Shown piece by piece: positions 8,350 to 64,000 of a stretch of DNA of 64,000 bases; within the stretch, counting starts at the first letter, position 1; the number at the start of each line of letters is the position of its first letter. Made by a program: the position numbers and the translations under genes. Below the pieces are notes generated by a model. The model did not search any database. It was not told the DNA's origin and was given only the letters and a program-made list of their open reading frames with translations. The DNA is taken from contig OZ024741.1 in NCBI GenBank assembly GCA_964016885.1, positions 183,768,001-183,832,000 on the forward strand. The letters are read 5' to 3'. This DNA is from Eledone cirrhosa (Eukaryota).

Positions 8350-11295
8350 ACACCACACCACACTCCACTCCACCCTACGACAAGACACCACATCACACTA
8401 CACCACACCACAACACACTGCTCCACACCACACCATACTACATGCACCAGACCACACTACAGCACACTACACCAAACCACACTACACCACACCACACCAC
8501 GCCACACCCCGCCACACTACACCACACCACACTCCACTCCACCCAACGACAAGACACCACATCACACTACACCACACCACAATACACTGCTCCACACCAC
8601 ACCATACTACATGCACCAGACCACACTACAGCACACTACACCAAACCACACTACACCACACCACACCACGCCACACCACGCCACACTACACCACACTCCA
8701 CTCCACCCCACGACAAGACACCACATCACACTACACCACACTACAACACACTGCTCCACACCACACCATACTACATGCACCAGACCACACTACAGCACAC
8801 TACACCAAACCACACTACACCACACCACACCACGCCACACCACGCCACCCTACACCACACTCCACTCCACCCCACGACAAGACACCACATCACACTACAC
8901 CACACTACAACACACTGCTCCACACCACACCATACTACATGCACCAGACCACACTACAGCACACTACACCAAACCACACTACACCACACCACGCCACACC
9001 ACGCCACACCACGCCACACTACACCACACTCCACTCCACCCCACGACAAGACACCACATCACACTACACCACACTACAACACACTGCTCCACACCACACC
9101 ATACTACATGCACCAGACCACACTACAGCGCACTACACCAAACCACACTACACCACACCACACCACGCCACACCACGCCACACTACACCACACCACACTC
9201 CACTCCACCCCACGACAAGACACCACACCACAACACACTGCTCCACACGACACCATACTACATGCACCAGACCACACTACAGCACACTACACCAAACCAC
9301 ACTACACCACACCACACCACGCCACACCACGCCACACTACACCACACTCCACTCCACCCCACGACAAGACACCACATCACACTACACCACACTACAACAC
9401 ACTGCTCCAAACCACACCATACTACATGCACCACACCACACTACAGCACACTACACCACGCCACACTACACCCCTCCACACCACACCACACTATACTACA
9501 TCACACTCTACCACAACGCACCACACTACAGCACACCACACCGCACCACACTACACCTTACCACACCACACCACACCACACCGCATAACACTACAGCATA
9601 TTGCACCACACTATACCACACCACACTACACCACACCACACCACACTACACTGCACCACACTACACCACACCACACTACACTGCACCACGCGACACAACA
9701 CTACAGCACACTGCATCACACTATACCACCCCACACTACACCACACAACACCACACTACACTGCACCACACTATACCACACTATACTGCACCCTACCACA
9801 CCACATTATACTGCACCACACTATACTGCACCACAGTACACCGCACTATACTGCACCACACTACGCCACACCACACGACACAACACTACAACATACTGCA
9901 CCACACTATACCACACCACACTACACCACACCAGACCACACTCCACAACACTACACCACACTATACTGCACCACACTATACCTCACCACACCGCACTACA
10001 CTGCACCACACTATACCACACCACACAACACCACACACCATCACACCACACTACACTGCACCACACTATACCACACCACACAACACCACACACCACCTCA
10101 CCACACCACACTATACCTCACCACACCGCACTACACTGCACCACACTATACCTCACCACACCACACCACACCACACAACACCACACCACACCACACTACA
10201 CTGCACCACACTATACCACACCACACCACATCACACAACACCACACCACACCACACTACACTGCACCACACTATACCACACCACACAACACCACACTACA
10301 CAACACCACACCACACTACAGCACACTGCACCACACTATACCACACAACACTACACTGCACCACACTGCACCACACAACACAACACCACACACCACCACC
10401 CCACACCACATTACACTGCACCACACTATACCACACCACACCACACTAAACTGCACCACACCACACCACACCATACCACACCACACCACACAACACCACA
10501 CCACACCACACCACACCATACCACACCACACCACACCACACCATACCACACCACACCACACAACACCACACCACACCACACCACACCATACCACACCACA
10601 CCACACTACACTGCACAACACTATACCACAACGTACCACACTATACTGCACCACAGCACATCACACCACACTACACCACACTACACTGCACTACACTATA
10701 CCACACCGTACCACACCACACAACACCACACTACACCACACTACACTGCACCACACTATATCACACCACACAACACCACACCGCACAACACCACACTACA
10801 CTGCACCAGACTATACCACACCACAACACACCACACTACACCACACTACACTACACTGCACCACACTACACCACACTATACCACACCACACCACACTACA
10901 CCACACTACACTACACTGCACCACACTACACCACACTATACCACACCACACCAGACCACACGACACTACACTGCTCACACTATACCACACCACACTACAC
11001 CACACTACACCACACTACACCACACTATACCACACCACACCACACTACACTACACTACACCACACTATACCACACCACACCACACAACACCACACCACAC
11101 TACACCACACCACACCACACTACACCACACTATACCACACCACACAACACCACACTACACCACACCACACTACACCACACCACACCACACCACACCACAC
11201 CACACCACACTACACCACACTATACCACACCACACAACACCACACTACACCACACCACACCACACTACACCACACTACACCACACAACACAACAC
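8350..11295. repeat. (CACCA/CACTA)n pentamer satellite; 8350-9470 organised as a 164-169 bp higher-order repeat
   Basis: Marker CAAGACACCA at 8381, 8550, 8714, 8878, 9047, 9216 and 9365. Confidence 0.95.
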
Positions 11296-11729
11296 CATAC
11301 TATAGCACGCAACACATCATCACACCAGCCAGCCAGACAACCAACCTCAGTACCATATCACACCCTTGCCCCTCTTCCCAATCCAACCCACCACTTTTCC
11401 TCATCTCCATCCATTCCCACCCCCTCCCATACTCACCTGTCCTTCAAACAACTTCCGTTCTGTGACAACCCCGCCATACTCACCTAGCCACTATCAATAC
11501 AATCTTACACCATTGTCCGCAATCTTTACCATCACCGTTCATTCCAGCTCTGTCGTCTTTCTCCTCCCAATGACACCCAACTACCCACATTAAACCCAAT
11601 GTCACACTATTGCCCACCATCATGTCCCATTCTCTCTCACTCTCTTTACCCTCCTCTCACTCTCTCTCAATCTCTTCATCTTCCACCCCACCCCTCTCTC
11701 AATTTCTTCATCTCCCACTCTCTCAGGCT

Positions 11730-32830: not shown

Positions 32831-35573
<2,743 letters not shown>

Positions 35574-35690: not shown

Positions 35691-36114
35691 CATCATTTCC
35701 CGAAGATGGCATATATATAGGTGAAGGTATATATATCTCCTCTGATAATTTGTAATATTTTTTTACATAGATCTTTAACATGATATACATACCAGCACAC
35801 ACATATATATCCAAGAAACGATCGTAAAATGATGAATTTTTCAATATAAGGAACCTGTTCATTGTTTTTATTTCATTGTTTTTATTAATTTATATATATA
35901 TATATATATATGTATATATGTACATACATACATACACACACATATATACATACACATATATATATATACACACACATACACACAGACAACCCCCACCCCC
36001 ACCCCACACACACACATATATATAGTTATATTTTAGGAGGTTCATGCTGCCATTTAAAAACACACGCACCTATAGTTTTTGGTTTTTACTTCAATTTATT
36101 ATAAACTTCCAGTT

Positions 36115-36525
36115 GGTTAATTTAGTAACTGGATGGTTGTTTATTTGTTTATTGTCAAAGTTCTTTCGTCACACATTCTGTGACTTTCTCAGTGACTAAT
36201 TTGTTATTTTATTTGTATCACACCTTTGTTCTGTTTTATTATTTATTTACATATTTATTGTCACTAGTTGGTTGCTTGTTCTGTCTGTGTTTTTCTGGTT
36301 TGTATTATTAGTTTTGTTCTTGTGTCTGTATATCTTTACCTTGTCTTTAGTTACTAGATGTAATGTTGTTGTTATTCCACTAATGTTTTGTATTTAGTTT
36401 CGGCTGGAGTTCGTTTATATTTCCGCTTCTATAATCTGTAGGAGCATTGCGTCTGTTCTGTGTGAGGATAGGATTTTATATTTCTGTTCTTTAGTGTTCG
36501 ATTCTGGCATGATGGATAAATGAAC
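36115..36525 (-). mobile_element. Penelope-like element 3' end (GIY-YIG C-terminus plus 3' UTR)
   Basis: Minus strand HARIEH..KYKILSSH..DAMLLQIIEA..INELQPKLNTK, followed by a hammerhead-like motif. Confidence 0.7.
36154..36196 (-). ncRNA. Variant/degenerate type I hammerhead motif
   Basis: GTCA CTGAGAAA GTCACA gaatg TGTGAC GAAA GAACTT TGAC: stems I and II intact, core non-canonical. Confidence 0.5.
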
Positions 36526-36533
36526 ACTGGCGA

Positions 36534-36584
36534 GAACTCCATGACACTAATGTTTCTGGGTATTACCCTTCATCAGTACAGTTC
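36534..36584 (-). ncRNA. Type I hammerhead ribozyme (copy 1)
   Basis: GAACTgta CTGATGA aGGGTaatACCCa GAAAC attagt GTC^ atggAGTTC: core boxes, GUC cleavage triplet and stems I-III present; proximal stem I mismatched. Confidence 0.75.
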
Positions 36585-36654
36585 ACTGTCCACCTGTCAA
36601 CTGTCAGAGTTAGTGAAAATATATGATATTTTCTAAAATATACAGTGAATGATC

Positions 36655-36756
36655 GGCCTGATTTGCATATTAGCAGACTGGCTGATCAGTCAGATCTGCA
36701 TATTAACAGACCCACTGATCAGCCAGATTTGCATATCAGCAGACTGGCCAGTCAGT
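36655..36756. repeat. Three 33-bp tandem units each carrying an octamer motif
   Basis: ATTTGCAT at 36661 and 36727, ATCTGCAT at 36694; an additional ATGCAAAT at 36875. Confidence 0.85.
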
Positions 36757-36951
36757 TTCCTGTATACGAGCAATCAATGGCCGGCTTTACCATATTCATT
36801 CTACATGACTGAATACAATAAATGTAATCTGAGTTTTTCGAATATTAATAATAACATTCGATTCGTTTGCAATTATGCAAATAAGCCTCATTTTAAAGCC
36901 ATGTCAGTAGAATGAGACCCTCATTCTTCCTCTTGTGTTGGCATGTAAACA

Positions 36952-37001
36952 GAACTGGAGACACTAATGTTTTTGGATATTACCCTTCATCAACGCAGTT
37001 C
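36952..37001 (-). ncRNA. Type I hammerhead ribozyme (copy 2, core mutated)
   Basis: GAACTGcg tTGATGA agggtaatatcca aAAAC attagt GTC tcCAGTTC; direct repeat of copy 1, 417 nt away. Confidence 0.65.
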
Positions 37002-37020
37002 ACTGTTCACCTGTTCAGTC

Positions 37021-37134
<114 letters not shown>

Positions 37135-38080
37135 TTAAATTGATCAATGTTTAGATGGACTGAGTTTTGTTTGAATCAAAAGAAGACATTTTTATTATAT
37201 TAAAAGAAATCTTCAATAAGAGGACTACAACAGAATTAGTTTCAACGTAGAAATTGCGCTGGGTTGCAATATCGAAAGAAAGTGGCGCTAGAATGATGGA
37301 TCACTCGGTCAGTACTATTCCATTTCCCGAATGTTAATCCACACCATATAATTCCTTACACATAAAAGAATTGTAAATTGAGACTTTATCTGCCCACTTC
37401 CCCCTTTACACATGAATTGTTGTCAACAATGCTGTTTTCAAGAACGAATGATGATTAGTATGAATGTATTTTCTATAATGCCGCAAATAAACCACATCGA
37501 TTTCAAGGGAAATATAATGTTACAGGCAACATAGGATATTTGTTATTTCTTTCAACAACAAATAAATAATTGAAATCTATTTGCTAAATACATTAGGCGG
37601 ACACATTCTTTTCCATTTCTTTTCATTTTTAAAACTGGAAGTTTATAATAAATTGAAATGAAAACCAACAGGTGCATGTGTTTTTATTAGCAGCATTATC
37701 CTACCAAAGAATAACACTATCAGTTCCAACACACGTTTTCAGATAGGAAAATCTTCAAAACAAATACAAAAACGAAGTATAAATATATATTGTTATTTCT
37801 GTTTATCTTTTATATACATACAGATATTTATAAAAAAGAGGGTGTGGTAAGATTCCAGGTGGACCATAACGCACCAGAGTACTCGATACTTGGGGGTAGT
37901 AGAGTGGGTAACATGAAAAGGTTCACGACATCGATGGCTAAGCTCCGGCCGTTTCGACAGCTAGATATATATATCCTGCAAGGAACAAGTTGAGGAAAAA
38001 TACTTTGATAAGCAATCCTCTATACTTATTTTGTTCACACATTTGATACACACATACGAAATTTAACCTGACATATCTTC

Positions 38081-46005: not shown

Positions 46006-47878
46006 ATGGACGACTCACAGCTACACCAATCAGCTGAGAGCCTTTCTCAGAAACTAACACCTCACACCAACACCACCATTGTAAATATTACTACGTTTGC
46101 CAACACTAAAAATATAAGCAGTAGCAATAATTTAAATTTGTCTCATGCAGACATTCATTTGCCGCCATTACCAATGACTGCAGGTGTTGAAGCCGTCACC
46201 CCCACCACCACCACAGCGACAGCAGAAACAAAATAAAAAAATAAATTATCTCGTGACATCGAAATGGATTCACCCAGAATCGACTCTTCCACACCGAACA
46301 CCACTGACGCCACCACCACCACAACTAAAACTAAAAATAACAATAACAAAAATAAAAATAACAACAACAGCAACAACAACAATGAGAATAACAACACCAT
46401 GTCGTTTGCCAAAGCAGCCAAAACATGCGAAACAATCCAGCTAACTCAGGAGGAATTAGATGAAGCCAAGAGAATGGTAAAGAAAGATGGGTACAGGGTC
46501 AGCCTCACCCCACCTAATAAAATGGAGCATCGGCGCCTATGCACCGTATCCTATCGGACGATTAACATAAAATCGCGCCGAGTAGAACGGGCATCCGAAT
46601 CCCAAATCCCAAAAGCTTTGGGACATGTGTGGGCAAAAAAACCCCACATCAGACGTGGGCAGAAATATGGAACCATGGACGTGTTCTTTGAACACCACAA
46701 GAGGCCAGAGAGCACTCCATAGCCCCCATTAAGAAGCGACGACTTCACACTCGTCCCAAGCTATTGTGGCCAGAGACTCGTAAAGATCAGGGTGACTCAC
46801 GTTCCACCGGCCATCGAAATTCTCTGGCTAATGGCTGCCGTCCTCGCCGGCATCGAGGGCAACACTAAAATAATAGAAATAGCAAAAGAAAAGCAGGAGA
46901 ACTGGTCCGGATCTGGGATGGAGCTCCTGATCCAAGCGGACCAAAAAAGCATTGAGGAGATCCCAGAGGTAATAGACCTCACTGACGGCAGCCACCTCAG
47001 CGTAATCGTCGAGGGTAGAAGGCTTAAGTGTGTCGTTTGTGGTGAAGGAACCCACCTAAGGGCTTTCTGCACTCAGGCTAAAAAGTTGAGGCCACCACTC
47101 TTACCCACCCCAGTGACTCAACCATCAACACCACCAGCAGCAGAAATGGCAGCAACAACAGAAGCAACTGTAGCAGCAACAACCCCAGTAACAGTAGCAA
47201 AACCAAGACCACCACCACCCAACGCGCCAGAACTAGCACCAGCGCCTACACCATCCACCACGCAACAAGCAAAACCAATGCCTGTGGAGGATTTTCCACT
47301 CCCCGACCTATCGCAACTGGAGACAGATTATGACGACGAGGAGTGGGAAACGGTATCAGGAAAAAAGAAAAAAAGAAAAAGAAGCCAAAAAAGAAAAAAA
47401 ATTGCTTCTTTCCACCTCCAAAAACAAAATACAGTGGGAAACAAATAAACTATGAAACAAAAAAGTTAGGACAGCTATGCCACCATCAACACAAGCATCA
47501 CAAACGTCATCACCACAAACACCAACACCATCACCATCATTAACCCCAACACCACCATTACCAACACCACAAAAGTCACCAAAAAGCGAAACAGAAACAA
47601 ACCCACAACAAACACAAACAAAACAAAACAACCAAAACGATACACACTACACACCATTAAATTTGAACAACAACCAATTATTACACTACATCCAACGCAA
47701 CACCAGCATCACAGAAAAAGACTACACAACAACCCAAAAGTTCACACCACCTCCACACATACAAATCACTCGCATCACACAGAAAACATACACGACACTA
47801 AAACAAAAATTCCTCAAAGACATTGGAGACTTCCGACAAGCACTCTCCAGGAGGATTTATAAGGACATCCTTCCGTAG
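46006..47878 (+). pseudogene. LINE ORF1 (gag-like, CCHC zinc knuckle), disrupted
   Basis: SFAKAA motif and CVVCGEGTHLRAFC (CX2CX4HX4C); stops and frameshifts present. Confidence 0.85.
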
Positions 47879-47972
47879 GAGGCTACAAACAGTGAAAAGC
47901 ATGGAGAAACCATCCTTCCTCTACGAGAAGTAAGGTAAGTGGTCTTTGCCATCTTTTCCACTCCATTTCAAC

Positions 47973-50900
47973 ATGACGTCACTCAGAATAGGCAGCATAA
48001 ATGCGCGTGGTTTGGAGTCGTCATGGAAGCAGGGCCACCTGCTCAACGAGCTCAGGTCATTAAACATAGATGTAGTGGCCATTAGCGAGACCAGAATCTC
48101 CGAAGCACGGGCCTTCGCACCGATCTTCGGCGGCTACGATGTGTACGCATCTCCCAGCCGTCCTGGATCGGGGGAATGAGTTGCTGTGCTTTTTCGGAGA
48201 GGTTTGGAGCTCGGCATACGGGCCATCTTCCTGGACCCAGAAGGTAAGTTGGTGGTGCTGGGCGTGACCAGATTAGACGGGCAAGCTTTCAAGCTAGTGG
48301 CCATCTATGCCCCGACAGGAGCAGGGCGGCCTGATTTCTTCCGGCGTCTGGAGACCTTTCTTGGAACGTCCCGCTCTTTAGTGTTAGTGGGCGACTGGAA
48401 CGGGATCTTAGATGCACGCTGGGACTGTGTGGTATTAGCGGATAGGGGAGTAAGGTGCAAGAGCCTCACCAACCTGCTCAGGCGTATTGAACTGTCTGAC
48501 AGGTACCGATTGGATTTCCGGAATGTGCCAATGTGGAGTTGGACAAATCGCATAGGGTCATCCAGATCATATCTAGATAGAGTATTTTGTAATGAAATAG
48601 ATAGGTCTAGCATAGGCTGTCAACAATTCAAGATAGTTAGCTACACGGACCACAAATTTGTGATCTGTGTGCTTGACTTAGATAGGCTTCATAGACGAGG
48701 ACCCGGCTACTGGAAGCTAAACGCGTCCTTACCAGCGCGCAAGGCCTACAGAGACCGGATTAGAGAACTAGTTAAGCGGGTGTTGACGGGGGCCATCGTC
48801 AACAACAAGTGTTGGTTTGCTCTGAAAAGAGCGATTAGAATAGAGTCCATTAGGTTTAGTAAGGCTTTAGCAATAGGGAAAAATAGAGCAGAGGGAGAAC
48901 TAGTTAGAAAATTAGACGAGGCGCTTAGCAAAGGCATCGCGACCGACGTACTTGCGGCGAAATTGGCCCTTGACCAATTCTTCAATGCAAAGCGCGAAGG
49001 CTGCGTTGTCAGAGCTAGGGTGCGTGCTCTCAGACACGAGGGGACGAAAGCCGTTCAATGAGCCTGAATGGCAGAGGCGCGTAGTGGCAACAAAGCCACG
49101 ATCCGGTCTTTGGTGGACCACGACGGGCGCATGCTATTCGATCCCGGGCAAATGTGTGAAGCTTTTCAGCGACACTTCGCACAGCTGTCCGGGGGCAGCG
49201 GCGGGCTGGACCGAGGGATGGACTTTAGCGCCTACCTCGACGGACTGCCGCGGCTCTCGGCCACTGAGGAGGAGTGTTGCGAAAAGCCGATAACAACCGC
49301 TGAAGTACGGGAGGCAATGACTGGCTGCACAAGAGGTAAATCGCCTGGTTTGGATGGTCTGCCCTATGAACTTTACGTACGCATGCCAGACTTGTTCGGA
49401 GGTCTCTTGGCGGACGTCTACTGCAACTGGCAACAGAACGGGAGAATTCCCAGCTCTGTGAGCCGAGGAGCTGTGGCGCTGCTGAGAAAGGATCCGAACA
49501 AGGGGGATAACATAGATAATTTCAGGCCCATAACTCTGCTAAACACAGAGTTCAAGATTTTCGCTAAGGTGCTAGCAAAGAGGTTGGCGCTTGCCGCGTT
49601 GGTGGTCTGTTGGGAGAGGCCTAGACATGCGCCATTCCCGACAGATCCATCCACGACAACCTCCACCTCATGCGATACATCGTAGAGAGGGTAGCTAGGG
49701 AACCTGGCACGGGTGGGTCCTTGATCAATTTAGATCAGTCGAAAGCTTTCGATAGGGTCGATCATCGTTACCTAGCGGCAGTCCTGAGGGCGGCTGGCTT
49801 TGGGCCCGTCTTCAGAGGCTGGATCGCTGTCATGCACAGCGACATCTGCTCTGTGGTGAGAGTGAACGGTCACCTTTCGGAACCGTTCAAAATCATGCTC
49901 TCGGTCCGCCAAGGATGTCCCTTCCCGTCCCTCTTGTACGTATTGTCTCTCGAGCCATTACTGCACAAACTGGAGACGTTGAGGGGGATCCCGCGCGAAC
50001 TAGGATGCGGAAGATCCGTGTCAGCATATGCGGACGATGTCACCGTAGTGGTGTCGAACGCCAAACACATCGAGGTGATCGGCACTACACTAAGTGAATA
50101 CGAAGCGGTGACAGGAGCAATGATCAACCAGGAAAAGTCAGTGGGCCTGCAGCTCGGCACCTGGATAGGACGGACGGACCGGTTAAATTGCTAGGGGTCT
50201 GGTTCGGTCCGGACCTCCAGACGGACAAACACTGGGACGAGGTGACGAGCAGGGTGGCTTCTCTCATCCAGAAATGGGCGGAGAGGAAGCTATCCCTGAA
50301 AGGTCGAGCGGAGGTGGCTAACGTGTACATCACGTCCGTCATCTACTACCACCTGACCGTCGTACCTTGTCCTAAGCCCCGCCTGACTGCGCTGTAGCGT
50401 TTGCTCTTTCGCTTTATGTGGAAGGGACGCGCTCCGATGGTCAGGCCGTCCATCTGCTGTCAACACCCGCTACGTGGAGGGCCGGGCATGCCGTGGCTGA
50501 TGATGCGCAGACACGCGCTCAGGCTACGACATCTTCACCTCTTCCTCGACGGTGATCAGGTATGGTCGCCGTTTGCTAGACGCGTCTTTCCCCAGCTCGT
50601 CTCCTTGACGGAGCTGCAGTCCTGAGTCAAGCGAAGACCGAGAGGGAGCGCTTGGAGACTGGAATGTCTTCAGGCGCTCACAGCCCTCGATTAATGTGAA
50701 CGGTGGAAACTCCACCTTGGCGTTCTATAGCGGATTAGTGGAGGGGAAGAGCGGCGGCGTAATTTAGGCGTCGACGAAAATCAACTAGCCAATCTCTTCG
50801 GAAGAACTTTCGGGCCGGGGCCTATGGACAACTTCCAGAAATCCCTGGCCTGGCAGTGCTACCGAGGAGCTTTGCCAGTTCGGGATAAACTCTACAGGCA

Positions 50901-62524: not shown

Positions 62525-64000
62525 GACAGAAAATTATGAGAAACCTAAAAACTCTGATCAACCAATACAAAGAACGACTCACTAACAAGGAATTCAGCTT
62601 CATCACAGACTTCACAAGTAAATCCAGCCTTTTCTACAGTATCCCTAAAGTACATAAAAGCGAATTAATAAGTAAGGCATGCAAGGAAGCCACAGACATA
62701 GTCATCAATGTCCCATCACCCAATGATCTCAAATTAAGACCTATAATAGCAGGCCCCGCTTGCGAAACCCACCGCCTTAGCAACTTCATTGATACCCTTC
62801 TCAAGCCCTTTCTCAAACACATCAAAAGCTATATAAGGGACGACCTAGATATGCTCAATCACCTCCCTAATATGCCCCTTTCTGAACAAACCCTACTAGT
62901 GACGTTCGATGTAGTCAACCTATACTCCAACATCCCCCACAACCTAGGAATAGAAGCTATCCAATTCTGGCTGGATAATTACCACAATGAACTCCCACAA
63001 CGCATCAAAAAAGAATTCGTGATAGAAGGACTCAAATTTATCTTGGAGAACAATTATTTTGTTTTCAATAACAAACCCTACAGGCAGAAATCTGGGACCG
63101 CTATGGGAACGAAAACAGCCCCCACTTATGCCAACCTAGTCATGGGATACCTGGAAATCACCCTCTACACTAAAGTCCTAAACAAATTTGGAAACACTCT
63201 CCACTTACACATAGAAAGGAACTGGAAGCGATATCTAGATGACTGCTTCATCCTTTGGCACGAAAACATCGAGAAACTTAAAGAATTTCACACCCTTATA
63301 AATGGGCTCAACACGAATATTAATTTCACGATGGAATACAGCCATCAACAACTCCTTCCTTGACATCCTCATTAAGATTCATAACAAAAAAATAGAAACA
63401 GACATATACTACAAGCCCACAGACTCCAAGCAATATCTTCCTTTCAACTCTTGCCACCCTAGACACGTTAAAATTAATATTCCCTACAACTTAGCCAAGA
63501 GAATCTGTACTATAGTCTCCAATAAAACACCTGTTACTTACGGCTACAAGAACTAAAGGACACACTCATAGGCAGGGACTACCCTGCATCACATATTGAC
63601 AATGGAATCCAACGTGACCTAAAACTCAGTACCCAGGACCTTAGACACCCTAAAGTAAATCAACCGAAACTAAAAGCTCTTCCATACATCTCCACACACA
63701 ACCCCCTCAACAATGAGGCCTTTGACACCATCCTCCAGAACATCTCTGTGTTGAAAAAGGACCATAGAATGAACCAAATCCTACGAACACACGATATCAT
63801 AAAGAGCAAAAGACAATCTAAGTCAATGAAAAACATCCTAACACATGCCAAAGTTCTGCCAACCACAACAACGAAACCCACAGTAAAAAAATGCGATAGA
63901 CCCAACTGTGGCATATGCATCAACCTAATAGAGGGTTCGGAATTCTATTTCAAAGAAGGACAACGTTTTATAGTAAAGCACAATTTCACATGCGCATCAG
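62525..64000 (+). mobile_element. Penelope-like element (Neptune-type) RT-thumb-Zn linker; 5'-truncated in (AT)n, frameshifted, runs off the window
   Basis: FYSIPKVHK, LRPII, FDVVNLYSNI, GTAMGT..AP.YANL, WKRYLDD, FLDI, YYKPTD, SCHP, CDRPNCGIC and FTC; frameshifts near 63355 and 63535. Confidence 0.95.

Follow-up and report, generated by a model that had tools for sequence, protein, structure and literature searches.

The window, a stretch of 64,000 nucleotides of the Eledone cirrhosa genome, carries a copy of a dispersed, non-coding hammerhead family that we assign with high confidence to the non-LTR retrozymes, that is, to non-autonomous Penelope-like elements of a kind already known. The assignment follows from the lack of coding capacity, from the Penelope-type marks at the ends of its insertions, and from the absence of any locus, among the 254 inspected, at which the unit is the pseudo-LTR of a coding element. 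Taken as a whole, the observations are probably best explained by a family that is mobilised by Penelope-like elements, internally promoted and partly self-cutting, and of which the window holds a decayed copy.

A dispersed hammerhead family and its copy in the window

The family was searched for in the whole genome (3.0 Gb, microsatellite-rich). Its 34-nt hammerhead core had 1,305 exact matches and the reversed control 0, so that the family cannot be attributed to chance, and the 3' 26-mer had 3,807 (3,456 + 351). A first-look search with the unit gave 3,175 candidates, 40 of which were scored. The consensus, derived from 24 distinct full monomers of 411-470 nt, is 438 nt long, with 38.6% GC and a longest ATG frame of 75 aa. 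From the exact matches and the median divergence from the consensus (4.9% in 381 segments), the genome likely holds on the order of 10,000 segments in all. The same divergence implies that the family may be inactive now and, the best other full-length copies being 94% alike, a recent burst is not evident. A host SINE has inserted repeatedly in the AT-rich hairpin of the unit, at consensus ~109-120 (L066, L079, L083, L086 and others). Three contigs from another organism also match the unit, and one loose end has a CTGACGA variant of the core; these are too few to use.

The consensus contains the boxes CUGAUGA, GAAA and GUC. The predicted helices are I (~20 bp with a bulge), II (4 bp) and III (3 bp); in 218 copies, roughly nine out of ten, the pair that closes helix II is A-A where G-C is usual. 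One strand of helix III is self-complementary (predicted -8.8 kcal/mol as a dimer), and a competing predicted fold, in which the core is hidden, exceeds the hammerhead in stability by ~6 kcal/mol (-32.8 versus -26.6 kcal/mol). The earlier note had allowed that other copies might keep the CUGAUGA and GAAA boxes or the stems poorly. Across 627 segments, however, all 17 positions with a variant at 12% or more fit the predicted fold (nine unpaired, seven still paired, one compensated) and none of them falls in the catalytic core, although these variants mark a few subfamilies and thus count as few events. Cores were intact in 62/98 unbiased copies, and the intact tandem copies that the note had envisaged do exist, with both cores intact in 18 of 35 tandem pairs, the window copy not being one of them. 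A scan with Rfam Hammerhead_1 (RF00163), proposed in the same place, gave a different outcome: the window had no match at the gathering score or at E up to 10, an intact copy of the family had none either, and the 18 matches in the genome all came from another family, none from the ~438-nt unit. The hammerhead call consequently rests on the core motifs, the helices and the pattern of variants.

Table 1. The element in the window and its immediate flanks (window positions)
Feature	Position	Strand	Remarks
PLE-B 3' end (different Penelope-like element)	36025..36513	-	broken GIY-YIG C-terminus, 3' UTR, decayed minimal hammerhead ~36196-36154
Inverted short piece from the endonuclease region of a coding Penelope-like element	36514..36541	+	joins the unit at the GUC or at most 2 nt from it
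Decayed copy of the ~438-nt family	36543..37013	-	consensus 385-438 plus one full unit (1-438); monomer 90.6% to consensus
Downstream hammerhead	36543..36600	-	CUGAUGA/GAAA/GUC core intact; helix-I 3' strand lost
Predicted snRNA-type promoter	36596..36668	-	octamer 36668-36661; ATCAGT box 36653-36648, mutated in the window copy; TATA-like box near 36624; predicted start near 36596
Three 33-bp repeats, each with octamer and ATCAGT-like box	36650..36748	-	long RNA hairpin, consensus -36.9 kcal/mol
Region of the family's two 3' ends	36798..36823	-	consensus 138-148, tail 165-180; tail end deleted in the window copy
Fourth ATGCAAAT, private mutation	36875..36882	+	inside a family palindrome
8-bp hairpin, family-wide	36909..36927	-	one compensatory pair
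Upstream type I hammerhead, damaged core	36938..37013	-	cut site after 36960
(GA)n microsatellite	37025..37130	+	just past the element's 5' end

In the window, two direct 55-nt repeats, 89% alike and spaced by 417 nt, lie on the minus strand, their GUC ending at 36960 and 36543 (Table 1). The earlier note took them for two type I hammerheads that bound a 417-nt unit. Both hammerheads are indeed present, but both are damaged, and 417 nt is a real spacing in the window but not the unit of the family, the window copy having a deletion of ~19 nt at 36799/36798. The upstream hammerhead carries C3>U at 36993 and G12>A at 36973. In the downstream one the helix-I 3' strand, from the cut site on, is replaced by DNA of another Penelope-like element; the junction shows 8-of-9 microhomology, and it could have arisen when the template was switched onto a cleaved RNA end, or by a microhomology-mediated deletion. 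With this damage and 89.8% identity to the consensus over the alignment, this is a dead copy, in agreement with the decay that the note had supposed.

The 8-bp hairpin singled out in the note recurs throughout the family, its compensatory pair being A-U in 271 cases, G-C in 50, G-U in 10 and A-C in 3. The fourth ATGCAAAT, in contrast, had to be rejected as a family feature, since it is due to a substitution private to the window copy: five segments have it, whereas the two family forms occur in 223 and 124.

We recognised no host gene near the locus, and repeats and pieces of retroelements account for the long frames of the window. Among these are a broken LINE-like element at 46723-49685, with frames that by eye are ORF1-like, endonuclease-like and RT-like; inverted repeats of 85-102 nt at 34009-35358, 89-95% complementary and ~0.7-1.2 kb apart, which may be MITE-like or an inverted insertion; and a degenerate (ACACC)n satellite of 3 kb at 8350-11297. 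A further PLE-B 3' end at 37643-37790 (+) faces outward, as does the one in Table 1, and the two flank the element.

The 33-bp repeats and host snRNA promoters

The three 33-bp repeats are present as the earlier note described them, with ATGCAAAT at 36727 and 36661 and the one-mismatch octamer ATGCAGAT at 36694. Host U2, U6, U1 and U5 genes were taken for a comparison of promoters. In the 13 non-redundant host U1/U2/U5 promoters used, a TCAGT-type box (regex [TC]CA[GA]T) is present without exception at -55 to -58, together with a TATA-like box at -29 to -36. TATGC(A/T)AAT occurs at about -77 in host U6 genes of three unlinked places and is absent from four other U6-like loci and from one SINE-interrupted array copy. 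Each 33-bp repeat combines an octamer of the host U6 type with an ATCAGT-type box as in host U1/U2/U5, and the third repeat of the consensus is laid out with the octamer at 312, ATCAGT at 327 and ATATAT at 356.

A matrix made from the U1/U2/U5 promoters found its best site in the unit at consensus 328, with a start near 385. The score of 14.6 lies within the leave-one-out range of the host promoters (12.6-23.7) and was reached by 0/300 shuffles and by 10 of 127,900 window positions; the two top-scoring sites both fall within the 33-bp repeats. The starts predicted separately from the U6 octamer and from the U1/U2/U5 box, at 385-388, agree within 3 nt and coincide with the 5' edge of helix I; 385 is also the consensus position at which the window copy begins. 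The promoter of newt satellite 2 reportedly also includes an octamer, with a start ~47 nt before the cut. The 5' ends of copies do not concentrate sharply at the predicted start, 385.

On this likeness to host genes, we see the case for a snRNA-type promoter in the unit as evenly balanced. The earlier note's idea of a family that promotes itself through octamers is thus retained in part: the boxes do resemble host snRNA promoters, at modest statistical strength, and the octamers are three, not four. Only a little less credible is that the 33-bp repeats are kept for their RNA structure, the likeness being due to chance in AT-rich DNA and transcription coming from neighbours. The repeats do form the most stable hairpin of the unit, and the unit lacks the AATTAAA element found at about -90 in host U1/U2/U5 promoters. 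Moreover, an independent matrix from U1 and U5 genes only, fetched after the idea arose, was equalled by 13/500 shuffles and 14/256 window tiles (p ~0.03-0.05), and it scored the opposite strand equally (12.7 versus 12.8). Chance, however, does not readily explain why two separate host elements should point to a single start at the edge of the hammerhead, or why both top sites should lie in the repeats, and a snRNA promoter has been reported for newt satellite 2, itself a hammerhead repeat (Coats, Zhang and Epstein 1994, as cited in the accessible part of PMC2220036).

Two further candidates were dropped. A snRNA 3' box in the unit was given up when an ungapped 3'-box matrix yielded no significant match (451/500 shuffles scored as high), a one-base-gapped likeness at consensus 123-135 being visible by eye. 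A Pol III terminator at the T-run of consensus 167-180 had rested on the coincidence of this run with the tail end. The comparison also provided candidate octopod snRNA promoter elements upstream of the host genes (L311-L354): AATTAAA at ~-90, TCAGT at ~-57 and a TATA-like box at ~-30 for U1/U2/U5, and TATGC(A/T)AAT at ~-77 plus TATA for U6. A candidate host snRNA 3' box of the AAAATCAGA type was seen in the same set.

Insertion ends, RNA template and predicted cut

Copies of the family have variable 5' ends and two fixed 3' ends, at consensus 138-148 and, with a tail, at 165-180; they thus end 138-180 nt beyond the GUC, not at it. A (TA)4 abuts 239/284 of the 3' ends, versus 500/5,000 background windows. 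To analyse the 5' ends we used 181 segments anchored on the 3' 26-mer (165 loci, two sets), excluding duplicates, anchors with less than 450 nt upstream and three nested anchors. An inverted piece of the family stands at the 5' end in 111/181 segments. Partial tandems occur among the copies, and their head-to-tail junctions are seamless.

The copies that extend past a whole unit bear on the form of the RNA template. Of the unbiased copies, seven extend beyond the second GUC, and none of them goes on for more than 100 nt, against a survival of 58/82 over the same distance in the first pass; in a mixed set, 39/43 such crossers stop within 119 nt and 4/43 go further, the longest copy having 2.5 units. 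These stops, ~100 nt above the second cut, favour linear read-through RNA over circles, although they may also be compatible with a length-dependent fall-off.

The classical retrozyme cycle, in which multimeric RNA is cut at both hammerheads, ligated to a 438-nt circle and copied by rolling reverse transcription, appears to us rather unlikely for this family, and we are equally doubtful that circular RNA is formed today. Several observations do agree with it. The predicted circle of the consensus is highly self-paired (z = -12.2, versus -7.9 for the window monomer, 60 shuffles each) and its fold rebuilds the hammerhead at the junction; the head-to-tail junctions have no seams; a circle would restore the upstream promoter that a linear daughter loses; and circles have been shown for the retrozymes of mussel, coral and axolotl (PMC7229834, accessible text). 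Where the two halves of long copies overlap, 569/662 diagnostic sites agree, versus 384 expected for random pairs, an agreement that either a linear or a circular template allows. A circle, however, has no 5' limit and would be expected neither to stop most crossers so early and hold copies to 2.5 units nor to give 3' ends at a fixed distance beyond the cut. Length changes are also not enriched at the point where ligation would have joined the ends (2/205), and the search for scars there was dropped. Under a linear template, the upstream promoter could be regained via rare circles or local duplication.

The 5' ends gather at the predicted cut. Of the segments that reach +22, 51/133 end in +1..+22, compared with 6/82 in the 22 nt upstream (-21..0; p = 2e-7); for the 3' arm of a hairpin of higher stability the figure is 5/54 (p = 4e-5). 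The pile-up is found in both sets (23/57 and 23/69), with one segment per locus (41/114 versus 6/73 upstream), and in inverted (33/80 versus 5/47) as well as non-inverted copies (18/53 versus 1/35). When a 22-nt window is slid over the whole pass, the best one starts exactly at +1. Within the interval, +6 (8 ends) and +15 (6 ends) match +1 (7 ends) in frequency, the seven at +1 giving p ~0.01 for a single pre-chosen position. At the same time, 82/181 copies read through the cut site, so that cleavage would be partial at best.

The pile-up is likely a fossil record of cleavage in vivo, and on this evidence from genomic copies we lean towards a hammerhead that did cut in vivo. The self-cleaving family of the earlier note thus gains indirect but good support from the gathering of 5' ends, while the Rfam match is lacking. 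Alternatively, the hammerhead is a non-cutting relic and the pile-up comes from stalling or snap-back of the reverse transcriptase in helix I, which we consider unlikely. The pile-up does cover the 3' strand of helix I, so that stalling predicts a nearly equal interval, and a relic would agree with a minimum-energy fold that buries the core, with the A-A closure of helix II and with the many copies that read through the site; in vitro, 8/9 Xenopus retrozyme dimers remained uncleaved (bioRxiv 10.64898/2026.07.22.740005, accessible part). Yet the more stable hairpin in the same RNA shows only a quarter of the hazard, the core is untouched by any common variant, seven ends lie exactly at +1, and the effect persists in non-inverted copies.

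With a hammerhead that cuts in part, the cycle could proceed as follows. Transcription would begin ~50 nt ahead of the GUC, with possible further starts one or two repeats higher, and the RNA would extend 140-180 nt past the GUC, sometimes through a whole further unit. The hammerhead, with A-A closing helix II, a competing fold that is the more stable one and a self-complementary helix III that would favour dimers, would cut only part of the transcripts. The cut 3' fragments would then give the short copies from +1, and uncut read-through RNA the copies of 1.5 units. A coding Penelope-like element would likely supply, in trans, the reverse transcriptase and endonuclease that copy the unit RNA, with insertion by target-primed reverse transcription at (TA)n.

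Relation to Penelope-like elements and known retrozymes

The mobilisation by Penelope elements proposed in the earlier note is supported by the copies, which combine (TA)n targets, 5' truncation, inverted 5' pieces, partial tandems and an optional tail; these marks match those listed for Penelope-like elements in the accessible part of Craig et al. 2021 (PMC8557442). The note had also considered that the unit might occur only as the pseudo-LTR of a coding Penelope element. In flanks of 1-1.5 kb on each side, searched by tblastn with one Penelope protein as query, a Penelope ORF was nearby at 16/254 loci, whereas an ORF running to its stop and then to the unit was found at 0/254, as was a RT + GIY-YIG ORF directly upstream of the unit. 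At the ORF-bearing loci inspected, ORF and unit are parted by (TA)n or joined mid-ORF. That the unit is the pseudo-LTR or 3' UTR of a yet unfound coding Penelope-like element, with the copies as its 5'-truncated remains, is therefore very improbable: the insertion marks are of the right type and the search covered short flanks with a single query, but in addition to the 0/254 loci the unit start is always preceded by the unit's own tail (24 full monomers, 89 long segments), and the hammerhead is of the canonical type with a long helix I, whereas that of PLE-B is minimal.

PLE-B is a very large coding family (36,981 first-look candidates, frames up to 679 aa) with a RT and with GIY-YIG at the C-terminus. 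It shares the (TA)n target with the unit and is a candidate helper; no DNA likeness was found between the unit and PLE-B loci. We likewise found no sequence shared by the unit and the second Penelope-like element of the window or the sister hammerhead family. We name PLE-B and the endonuclease piece from their motifs together with homologues. Pfam gave only a weak RVT_1 match for PLE-B (E 0.0025) and nothing relevant for the endonuclease piece; the best homologue of a retroelement protein of this genome is from Octopus vulgaris (68% identity). An ORF fragment adjoining the unit was rejected as its reversed coding partner, since (TA)n parts the two elsewhere and PLE-B has a hammerhead of its own.

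Three other observations concern neighbouring elements. At one locus (L009/L013, G000:C4:203872473-203875945), which is duplicated ~120 kb away, a Penelope ORF fragment is fused mid-frame to the unit within the hammerhead core, with short microhomology at the joint. A second, unrelated hammerhead family (L370-L387, e.g. G000:C3:10277077-10277121) passes Rfam Hammerhead_1; it has (TA)n targets, two 3' ends, inversions, and at least 1 kb of AT-rich upstream sequence without a match to the PLE-B protein. Finally, another Penelope-like element, presumably Neptune-like by its motifs, lies after (TA)n at 62527-64000 of the window (also L388); it is 5'-truncated and frameshifted, contains RT, CxxC linker and GIY-YIG, is unlike the unit, and had no hammerhead motif that we could find adjoining it.

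At the level of sequence, the family falls within the definition of metazoan non-LTR retrozymes given in the accessible text of Cervera and de la Pena 2020 (PMC7229834): a non-coding unit of 150-450 bp with a type I hammerhead, less than 50% GC, head-to-tail copies and a highly self-paired predicted circle. The nearest mollusc retrozyme described there is that of mussel, and in the axolotl HHR_Amex2 the base of helix II is mismatched, as it is by A-A in our unit. Compared with the retrozymes in that text, the unit occurs mostly as dispersed copies of 0.3-1.5 units and not in long arrays, its Penelope-type ends, inversions and (TA)n targets are directly visible, and it adds a candidate internal promoter.

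A Penelope origin of animal retrozymes has been argued by Li, Clavereau and Pollet 2026 (bioRxiv 10.64898/2026.07.22.740005), whose accessible text leaves the mechanism of mobilisation open. They reach the conclusion drawn here on mobilisation by Penelope-like elements, and the share of monomers differs widely among families. Their case, in the part available, draws on co-occurrence and on homology of pLTRs; its sample comprises 31 vertebrates, 3 insects and 1 anthozoan and includes no mollusc. For our unit, the insertion ends provide the evidence, and no coding element among those compared had a pLTR homologous to it. With EN+ Penelope-like elements, as described in the accessible parts of PMC8557442 and of Cervera and de la Pena 2014 (PMC4209133), the unit shares 5' truncation, partial tandems, an inverted 5' copy, a tail of 30-40 bp at one end only, (TA)n targets, and a hammerhead near the 3' end with an extra base after A9. 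It differs from them in having no ORF, and from their minimal hammerhead in its long helix I with an internal bulge and its 3-bp helix III. With newt satellite 2 (PMC2220036, accessible part) it would share the internal snRNA-type promoter reported for that hammerhead repeat, except that ours is predicted from host snRNA genes only and is triplicated.

In the literature searched, with most subscription papers outside reach, neither a retrozyme from a cephalopod nor a study of insertion ends at the cut site turned up, and the accessible main text of a 2026 O. vulgaris repeat annotation (PMC13282606) does not mention hammerhead, ribozyme or retrozyme. The family may already be catalogued, for example in Repbase, Dfam or supplements. 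What our analysis would add is evidence from insertion ends for in vivo cleavage and linear templates, and a candidate snRNA promoter of host type.

The role of the hammerhead in Penelope-like elements is called unclear in the accessible part of Craig et al. 2021 (PMC8557442). Since the 5' ends of copies mark the ends of RNA templates, they offer a test from DNA only of both the role of the hammerhead and the way of mobilisation and, if the pile-up does reflect cleavage, the same count could be applied to any retrozyme or Penelope family. We propose, tentatively and with less than even confidence, that the insertion ends record the whole RNA cycle of the family, with a captured and triplicated snRNA promoter whose transcripts begin at the edge of the hammerhead, ~40% cutting in the germ line, and a Penelope enzyme acting on linear templates, both cut fragments and uncut read-through RNA, and not on circles; as a part of this joint proposal, and just as tentatively, the promoter would have arisen independently of that of newt satellite 2. 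If true, this would be direct genomic evidence for hammerheads acting in vivo, and would make the rolling-circle model unnecessary for animal retrozymes.
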